Source: Escherichia coli
GTDB lineage: Bacteria > Pseudomonadota > Gammaproteobacteria > Enterobacterales > Enterobacteriaceae
Assembly (NCBI RefSeq): GCF_024700885.2
Contig: NZ_CP117016.1
Strand: one strand, 5' to 3'
Length of the DNA: 64,000 nt
This document shows positions 2,544 through 3,756 of the stretch, piece after piece (the first letter of the stretch is position 1; each line of letters begins with the position of its first letter). The notes beneath the pieces are model-generated. The model ran no database searches. It saw only the letters and a program-made list of their open reading frames with translations, and was not told where the DNA came from. A program made the position numbers and the translations under genes.

Positions 2544-3066
2544 TCCAAAGATATATTAATGGGAGTATATAAAGGGCGGCAGTAGTAAATATTCGAAGTA
2601 ATATCCATAAAATAACAATTATTTTTTCTTTTTGTGTGGGGATCCTCGTCGTAAGTCCAACTTGAGTTACCCTTGAAATTTTATCATCTATGTCACGGTG
2701 ATTCTCAACCTCATTGAGCAAATTAAAATATTTTTCTTTCTGTTCAAGAGTTAACTGTTGACTGGTGGTAATGTCAAAATAGAGTCGCTGTAGTGCAATA
2801 TAATTCCTTCTCATGGCTATTGCTCGACCACGAAAATCTAGGTTAGATACGATCAGCGAAATACCCAGTAGGGCCACCGAAAGTATTGCCGCAACGATAT
2901 CTGTGTTATCTCCTAGAACTTTTGGAAATCGCAACGTTACAATTGAAAGTACCGCACTCAATATAGCATACCAAACGAGGATAAATTGAGAGTGCTTTTC
3001 AAGCCATTCTAGTCGATGGTGCGCTTGGATACGGGCTTTATATGTAAACCAAATATTGTCATGCAT
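2515..3066 (-). CDS. Multi-pass membrane protein with SLATT-like topology; putative effector partner of the RT
   Basis: 183-aa ORF with hydrophobic helices ILVWYAILSAVLSIVTLRF, IVAAILSVALLGISLIVSNL and C-terminal IIVILWILLRIFTTAALYILPLIYLWI. Its stop overlaps the RT start by 29 nt on the same strand. Confidence 0.5.
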   Translation of the reverse strand: MHDNIWFTYKARIQAHHRLEWLEKHSQFILVWYAILSAVLSIVTLRFPKVLGDNTDIVAAILSVALLGISLIVSNLDFRGRAIAMRRNYIALQRLYFDITTSQQLTLEQKEKYFNLLNEVENHRDIDDKISRVTQVGLTTRIPTQKEKIIVILWILLRIFTTAALYILPLIYLWIDYDCKQNF

Positions 3067-3288
3067 AAAAGATCCTTTTTAAAAGCGGAAGGGGCAGGAT
3101 ATATTGGAATCATTGAACATCCTGCCCGGCAGGATCAGTGAGCATAAGCTCAACAGTAAAATATTACTGTTCATTATCAGAGCCGCCCTTGCATGCACAA
3201 GAGGAAAAACCTGCCCCATCCTTTTGAATTATTACAATTTAATGATCTTAAAGTCAATACAAGTGAATGGTGTCCAGAGATGATGAAC

Positions 3289-3537
3289 TTAATGAACAAA
3301 CCACTCGTCAGCAGACTCCCAGGTATCTTTCAGAGTTTCCTGAACAAAAGTTTTAGCTGAATCTTTATCGGCGGTGCGCGTAACAGAAAGGCCATCGTTG
3401 CTGGTGGCTTTTACGATCACCTCTACATCGTCATAACGCTTACTGATGCGTCGAGTTAATTCTTCCTTTAACGCATCCACAGCACCGCTTGGCATTTTAG
3501 TCATTTTCTCTTTAGCTATGCAGATCTCAATACGCAT
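3289..3537 (-). CDS. DinI-family DNA-damage-inducible protein (prophage-type)
   Basis: 82-aa [12 protein letters not shown]...[11 protein letters not shown]...[16 protein letters not shown] matches the DinI family pattern. Confidence 0.7.
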
Positions 3538-3552
3538 AAAAATCCCTCTACA

Positions 3553-3596
3553 CTGTGTTTGTATACAGTGTTATTTTTAACTGTATGAATAAACAG
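3553..3596 (-). promoter_or_regulatory. Two tandem LexA (SOS) boxes upstream of the dinI-like gene
   Basis: CACTGTGTTTGTATACAGTG (3551-3570) and CTGTATGAATAAACAG (3581-3596) both fit CTGT-N8-ACAG, 16-60 bp upstream of the minus-strand start. Confidence 0.6.
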
Positions 3597-3756
3597 TGTC
3601 AATAGAACAAAGATTGCTGCATGTACAAATGTTCTTTGGCTACAAATACACCTACTGATCATGTTCTGCTATGCTCTGATACCTCCAAAATGTACAATCA
3701 GCGGCATGAATTTTTCTTTGTACATATGATTGTACATAATTAAAGAGACAACAATT

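Follow-up and report, generated by a model that had tools for sequence, protein, structure and literature searches.

The structured stretch upstream of a SLATT–reverse transcriptase operon in Escherichia coli matches the published ncRNA of the Eco3DRT10 phage-defence system

Introduction

Reverse transcriptases (RTs) of the UG17 clade together with a SLATT protein constitute the system now named DRT10. In Eco3DRT10, the RT, a non-coding RNA (ncRNA), and the SLATT protein are each required for defence (PMC12632851; bioRxiv 10.64898/2026.06.29.735271). The Eco3DRT10 ncRNA is 137 nt long and contains a loop that templates the cDNA repeat GAATCATTG (Tang et al. 2025, PMC12632851). Its published boundaries were mapped by RIP-seq, and cryo-EM described five stem-loops (SL1 to SL5) with SL1 and SL5 formed, a 4-nt linker between SL1 and SL2, and SL5 directly 5′ of the template loop. 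A further ncRNA, UG17-A, is located about 15 nt 5′ of its SLATT gene, has its own promoter, and requires a basal SL1 for RNA stability (bioRxiv 10.64898/2026.04.29.721553).

Here, a locus on the minus strand of a 64-kb stretch of E. coli DNA (the whole stretch is henceforth called the window) was compared with these systems. An earlier note on the same DNA had singled out the intergenic segment 5′ of a membrane-protein gene and had offered two readings for it, i.e., a regulatory 5′ untranslated region with mutually exclusive hairpins or a structured ncRNA belonging to the neighbouring defence RT.

Methods

The sequences of the Eco3DRT10 plasmid insert and of the ncRNA variants were taken from the supplement of Ramirez et al. 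2026 (bioRxiv 10.64898/2026.06.29.735271). Homologues were gathered via the SLATT protein, via the RT alignment, and via a conserved DNA word, and the resulting set comprised 56 distinct RNAs; the named records in it come from enterobacteria and pseudomonads, and further ones from metagenome contigs. Additionally, a peptide scan of genome contigs returned 20 loci.

Results

Identity with the Eco3DRT10 ncRNA

The minus strand of the window from 3288 to 2890 matches the plasmid insert published for Eco3DRT10 in all 399 nt shown, and the published ncRNA matches 3221 to 3085 in 137/137 nt. The reverse complement of the published repeat, namely CAAUGAUUC followed by CAAU, was found at 3115–3103 (minus strand); with C107 anchored at 3115, RNA position n corresponds to window coordinate 3222−n, and the RNA therefore spans 3221–3085. 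In this numbering, the residues named in the published work (U43, G44, G86, G104, U105, U106, U110, G111, C116, A117, and U119) all fall on the expected base. The stretch 3221–3085 (minus strand) almost certainly encodes the RNA component of a phage-defence system of the DRT10 (UG17) type, with the very sequence known from Eco3DRT10. It is an already published object, base for base the Eco3DRT10 model system, and not a new regulatory leader. The exact identity bears out the suggestion that a structured ncRNA is encoded next to the defence RT. Its 3′ end lies 18 nt 5′ of the SLATT start codon, and “leader” is a fair term topologically. The coordinates of all features are given in Table 1.

Table 1. 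Features of the DRT10 locus and of its ncRNA, in window coordinates (nt, position within the 137-nt RNA)
Feature	Coordinates	Strand	Basis or remark
Terminator-like hairpin with U5	1063–1103	−	Intrinsic type, −21.3 kcal/mol, z = −5.6; 3′ of the RT gene
UG17/DRT10 reverse transcriptase gene, 456 aa, ATG at 2537	1167–2537	−	PADLOC RT_UG17, E-value 2.1e-158
SLATT membrane effector gene, 183 aa	2515–3066	−	PADLOC RTasSLATT, E-value 7.9e-57; RefSeq WP_000543833.1
Ribosome-binding site of SLATT, AAGGA	3073–3077	−	6 nt 5′ of the ATG at 3066
DRT10 ncRNA, 137 nt	3085–3221	−	Identical to the Eco3DRT10 ncRNA in 137/137 nt; RNA position n lies at 3222−n
SL1, 3′ strand, nt 124–135, CCUGCCCCUUCC	3087–3098	−	Inverted repeat; overlaps the first ggcaggat
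Loop B, template loop, nt 104–123	3099–3118	−	Fold and published residues
A′ realignment segment, nt 116–119, CAAU	3103–3106	−	C116, A117, and U119 match
Template A-B, nt 107–115, CAAUGAUUC, copied into the cDNA repeat GAATCATTG	3107–3115	−	Direct sequence reading; published motif
SL5, nt 87–103, AUCCUGCC-G-GGCAGGAU, template-boundary hairpin	3119–3135	−	Inverted repeat and fold
SL4, nt 71–82	3140–3151	−	MFE fold
SL3, nt 51–70, AU-rich hairpin	3152–3171	−	Inverted repeat and fold
Loop A, about nt 40–50, CUCUGAUAAUG, with U43 and G44	3172–3182	−	Fold; residue numbering agrees with the paper
SL2, nt 17–39	3183–3205	−	MFE fold; the TGCATGCA palindrome is the apex
SL1, 5′ strand, nt 1–12, GGAUGGGGCAGG	3210–3221	−	Inverted repeat; includes cctgcccc
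Promoter-like site, TTGACT-18 nt-AATAAT with upstream TG	3228–3257	−	10/12 consensus matches
dinI-like gene	3289–3537	−	Bounds the intergenic segment 3067–3288 opposite the SLATT gene

Genes and flanks of the locus

The constituents of a DRT10 system, i.e., a UG17-clade RT, an adjoining SLATT gene, and a structured ncRNA on the same strand 5′ of SLATT, are all present. In the PADLOC search of the RT, the RT_UG17 profile was aligned across its full length, and the UG17 profile surpassed Drt9 (E-values of 2e-158 vs 5e-20). A sequence search with the RT found no DRT10 entry in the PDB copy used and returned a group II intron RT as the top match. The 3′ end of the SLATT gene and the start of the RT gene share 23 nt (coupled genes). 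The RT has the C-terminus ...DISGIS, with S456, the priming residue in Eco3, as its final residue, and S456 as well as R371, K385, and Y388, which contact the RNA, are invariant across 21 RT homologues. Compared to the Eco3 RT (OKX54664.1), the substitutions T94A, T150A, and H370R were found among the 399 residues shown. The substituted position H370 adjoins R371, which has been reported as essential for holding SL5.

The terminator-like hairpin 3′ of the RT gene, with a 10-bp stem and UUUUU, is located 64 nt past the RT stop codon and presumably closes the operon; it was overlooked by a simple terminator scan because its loop measures 16 nt. This loop contains AUCCUGCC, the 8-mer common to SL1 and SL5.

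The DRT10 cassette is situated at a prophage end, in the order tail-fibre genes (57–761), small membrane-protein ORF (772–1059), DRT10, dinI-like gene, and host prfC. In the identical RefSeq record, a frameshift is flagged for the tail-fibre gene upstream, and the cassette had no match in the GenBank phage collection (megablast). At 3581–3596, 5′ of the dinI-like gene, CTGTATGAATAAACAG forms a LexA-box-like CTG-N10-CAG beside a promoter-like site at 3602–3573. The stretch from the dinI-like stop codon to the candidate DRT10 promoter contains no terminator-like site, so that SOS-induced transcription could conceivably continue into the ncRNA.

Fold of the 137-nt RNA

Folded alone, the 137-mer had a minimum free energy (MFE) of −54.0 kcal/mol and formed five stem-loops, in agreement with the cryo-EM description, the 4-nt linker between SL1 and SL2 included. 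SL1, the two 12-nt strands of which (3087–3098 and 3210–3221) are 92% complementary, closes the whole RNA; its GC content of 75% and the share of GC pairs in SL3 (2/8, i.e., 25%) are as published. G86 and G104 are both present, and CAAU-GAUUC-CAAU occupies nt 107–119, 3 nt past SL5.

The short motifs on which the earlier note had built its reading are real, with positions that needed partial correction: ggcaggat occurs at 3093–3100 and 3128–3135 rather than at 3095–3102 and 3129–3136, cctgcccc at 3210–3217 rather than at 3211–3218, and the palindrome TGCATGCA at 3190–3197 rather than at 3191–3198, while atcctgcc is found at 3119–3126 as reported. The complementarities described for them hold as well (8/8 for 3119–3126 with 3128–3135, 9/9 for 3092–3100 with 3119–3127), but the list of pairings was incomplete, with the dominant helix 3087–3098/3210–3221 and the hairpins at 3152–3171 and 3140–3151 left out.

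The tetranucleotide UCCU recurs at nt 17–20, 88–91, and 123–126 (3202–3205, 3131–3134, and 3096–3099), each time opposite an AGG; it begins the 5′ side in both SL2 and SL5, and the 3′ strand in SL1. In all 56 homologues, these UCCU/AGG helices have an invariant GG:CC core. The recurrence may reflect not alternative folding but the pseudo-symmetric contacts that have been published for the RT.

Conservation and covariation

The SLATT motif WFTYKARI is encoded 3′ of the RNA in all 56 homologues. When these were aligned with MAFFT, the five-stem structure was paired in 96.9% of cells, with 21 pairs changed on both sides, compared to 50–56% paired in a control in which the partners were slid by 1–3 columns. 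After realignment with a covariance model, 97.4% were paired and both-side changes occurred in 20 of 35 pairs; across the two alignments, the slid controls ranged from 50 to 58%. Per stem, pairing amounted to 93.5–95% in SL1 (compensatory changes in 9–10 of 11 pairs, with 10 after the realignment), 98.6% in SL2 (4 pairs with compensatory changes), and 97–99% in SL4 (compensatory changes in 3 of 4 pairs). The covariance model had a single match in the 64-kb window, at 3071–3227 (minus strand; 144 bits, E-value 2e-31). CAA...CAA spaced by 9–11 nt, i.e., the A-B-A′ pattern, was found in the template loops of 53/56 homologues; in some of them, a search for the longest repeat in Loop B chose GTTC...GTTC (8 nt) instead of the positionally homologous CAA...CAA.

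No match of the covariance model was obtained in seven distant UG17 loci of the peptide scan with 31–34% RT identity (Phaeobacter, Sphingomonas, Sulfitobacter, and Ahrensia). If ncRNAs are present at these loci, they would represent another subtype; a published remark that DRT10 ncRNA models are valid within subtypes only agrees with these seven null results.

Promoter and transcript

The promoter-like site at 3257–3228 lies within the native flank that was cloned for Eco3DRT10, and the predicted transcription start is located about 7 nt past it, at ~3221. A −10-like hexamer precedes the first SL1 base by 3–7 nt, with a strict TAnnnT in 43 of 54 homologues and CATAAT, AATAAT, or TATAAA in the remaining ones (judged by eye). 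Judging from these sequence features, the ncRNA would be transcribed from its own promoter at 3257–3228 with a start at ~3221. The SLATT-RT mRNA probably arises via read-through of the ncRNA, since the ATG follows the ncRNA after just 18 nt and this gap contains no promoter-like site. Production of the ncRNA and the SLATT-RT mRNA from one promoter is a minor question that has become testable.

Alternative pairing and competing explanations

GGCAGGAT is present in 7 copies in the 64-kb window compared to 2.0 expected, three of them inside 43 bp of this segment, and the 231-nt segment folded with z = −2.5. The four GGCAGG/CCUGCC words correspond to both strands of SL1 and both strands of SL5, and because the two stems share these words in this E. 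coli lineage, cross-pairing is possible. In the resulting nested fold, the 5′ strand of SL1 is paired with the 5′ strand of SL5 and the 3′ strand of SL5 with the 3′ strand of SL1, with the latter hairpin enclosing the template loop.

From this cross-pairing derives the reading of the segment as a regulatory 5′ leader (attenuator or riboswitch), in which SL5 and the hairpin around the template loop would compete and thereby control expression of the SLATT-RT operon. The pairing is indeed perfect over 9/9 positions, and the ncRNA adjoins the ribosome-binding site of SLATT with no promoter-like site between them. Folding of the minus-strand transcript, which had been proposed as a check, found structure, but its outcome depended on the span: with ViennaRNA, the alternative was the MFE fold only for the 231-nt span, i.e., with 69 nt 5′ of the likely start included, and was set aside because these 69 nt lie 5′ of that start, whereas for transcripts from 3221 the native five-stem fold dominated and the alternative made up ~12–16% of the predicted ensemble. 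For the alternative, a probability of 0.12 was predicted in this sequence type; it fell to 0.02 in the common E. coli variant and to ~0 in 52/56 homologues. Covariation, likewise proposed as a check, supported the five-stem fold in the 56 homologues but not the alternative helices, which were 82.6% and 60.5% paired with mostly broken outer pairs; in most homologues, SL5 is shorter (4–5 bp) and does not contain the shared UGC/GCA extension. For this exact RNA, it has been published that inversion of the SL5 strands leaves defence unaffected and that SL5 can be shortened by as much as 3 bp without loss of defence; in the 3-bp truncation, the predicted alternative drops to 0. In the cryo-EM description, SL1 and SL5 are formed, with 3119–3126 paired to 3128–3135 and 3087–3098 to 3210–3221, which places the pairing 3093–3100/3119–3126 outside the native fold. 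No leader or riboswitch family of Rfam matched. Control of the operon by such a leader is thus highly improbable, and mutually exclusive hairpins in a regulatory 5′ untranslated region are not supported as an account of the segment: the alternative helices are not conserved and SL5 mutants still defend, and the cross-pairing is therefore regarded as a lineage-specific by-product, not as a conserved switch.

A narrower version, confined to the Eco3 lineage, would have ~10–15% of nascent transcripts in the alternative hairpin, and the choice of fold or RT binding would determine how much free ncRNA is made relative to read-through effector mRNA. Such an effect is conceivable because SLATT-RT has no promoter-like site of its own and the ncRNA doubles as its 5′ leader, and if true it would add an autoregulatory layer that is not described in the cited DRT10 literature; it is considered very unlikely.

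Apart from the ncRNA identified above, the segment might represent a transcription terminator that serves the dinI-like gene 5′ of it, or debris of a prophage end or att site, palindromic by accident. The stop codon of the dinI-like gene (3289) does immediately precede the segment, the prophage ends here beside prfC, and UUUU follows SL1. On the minus strand from 3289 to 3066, however, no terminator-like site was found, and the element follows SLATT-RT and not dinI (~3,000 genomes carry the dinI-like gene vs 187 with the element). With the RNA also found beside SLATT in unrelated contexts in Pseudomonas, Photorhabdus, and Buttiauxella, this explanation is exceedingly improbable. That the inverted repeats are functionless and arose by chance within an AT-rich spacer has a probability close to nil: 8-nt words can recur randomly, but the observed repeat count (7) was reached in 0/100 shuffles, the helices covary in 56 homologues, and the sequence is exactly that of an experimentally validated RNA.

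Distribution, alleles, and annotation

Among 5,426 complete E. coli genomes, 187 carry the segment comprising promoter and ncRNA, in each case chromosomally, and the RT-SLATT locus at a coverage of at least 80% was likewise found in 187. Identity to the window was at least 99% in 33 of the 187 genomes and 95–99% in 154. At the position of the ncRNA, no feature was annotated in any of the 12 matches listed, out of the 187 genomes, and annotation of the identical RefSeq locus is limited to the RT, SLATT, and DinI-like proteins. In Rfam 15 (E-values up to 10), no family came near its gathering score; the best hit of the region was an unrelated lncRNA model (13.6 bits, E-value 9.7). The practical value of the result consists in the annotation of this ncRNA, as the RNA is already published and yet unannotated in the genomes listed and represented by no Rfam 15 family, and additionally in a check that such RNAs can be found by reading the sequence alone.

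At least two template alleles exist in E. coli, i.e., CAAUGAUUC at this locus and in locus L001, and CAACGGUUC in the commoner type (L006; 24 of the loci fetched). The CAACGGUUC allele would yield a different cDNA repeat, with an A-A′ homology of only 3 nt. Another E. coli lineage, which includes ST131 strains, carries a 94–97% identical copy at ~2.26 Mb that is not beside prfC. In some prophage contigs, the sequence 5′ of the cassette departs from that seen here shortly above 3284, by a few bases (L007 and L011 vs L001 and L006), where CTGGAGATTCAGGGGGCCAGTCTA... replaces the 3′ end of the dinI-like gene; given this divergence near 3284–3288, the cassette occupies more than one prophage context.

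Discussion

In the mechanism published for this exact sequence, one ncRNA scaffolds two RT monomers. The monomer at Loop B uses S456, the serine at its C-terminus, as the primer for DNA synthesis and copies CAAUGAUUC (A-B) until SL5, which acts as the 5′ template boundary and is anchored by R371 of the RT via the G86-G104 contact. The nascent DNA re-anneals to the downstream CAAU (A′) and the cycle repeats, with kilobase-long GAATCATTG tandem repeats as the telomerase-like product; Loop A is a second template that gives short abortive products only. [quoted passage not shown]

Among described systems, attenuator and riboswitch leaders have in common with this RNA the position as 5′ leader of an operon and the presence of competing complementary segments. 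They differ in that the competing pairing here is non-conserved and dispensable and has no Rfam match; membership was rejected based on the lack of conserved exclusive helices and of a match to a curated cis-regulatory family. Retron msr-msd RNAs resemble it as structured ncRNAs beside a defence RT that serve as templates, but the RT here is a UG17 and not a retron RT, and the product would consist of protein-primed tandem repeats instead of msDNA. Assignment to retrons was rejected as well, with UG17 as the best RT profile and “retron-type” in the public records of some relatives being a label only. The telomerase RNA is alike in its manner of working, with a short template, a downstream alignment segment, a stem-loop as template boundary, and tandem repeats as product, whereas the RNA considered here is bacterial, 137 nt long, would act in protein-primed synthesis rather than in the extension of chromosome ends, and would be bound by two RTs per RNA.

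The ncRNA of DRT9 (UG28) is reported to have a close secondary structure and a template loop copied by protein-primed synthesis; it differs in its conserved poly-U template, which gives poly-dA, compared to the 9-nt A-B-A′ unit found here. The UG17-A ncRNA of Escherichia sp. E3659 (Sanchez-Nieto et al. 2026, bioRxiv 10.64898/2026.04.29.721553) belongs to the same type of system and occupies the same position, but is ~143 nt long with six predicted stem-loops, templates 7-nt repeats, and has a different sequence. Eco3DRT10 itself has the promoter, the 137-nt ncRNA, the SLATT start, the template, the five stem-loops, and the order ncRNA-SLATT-RT in common with this locus; the differences lie in the three RT residues named above and in the source record (RT OKX54664.1, LRLX01000203.1), the locus described here being located at a prophage end beside prfC.
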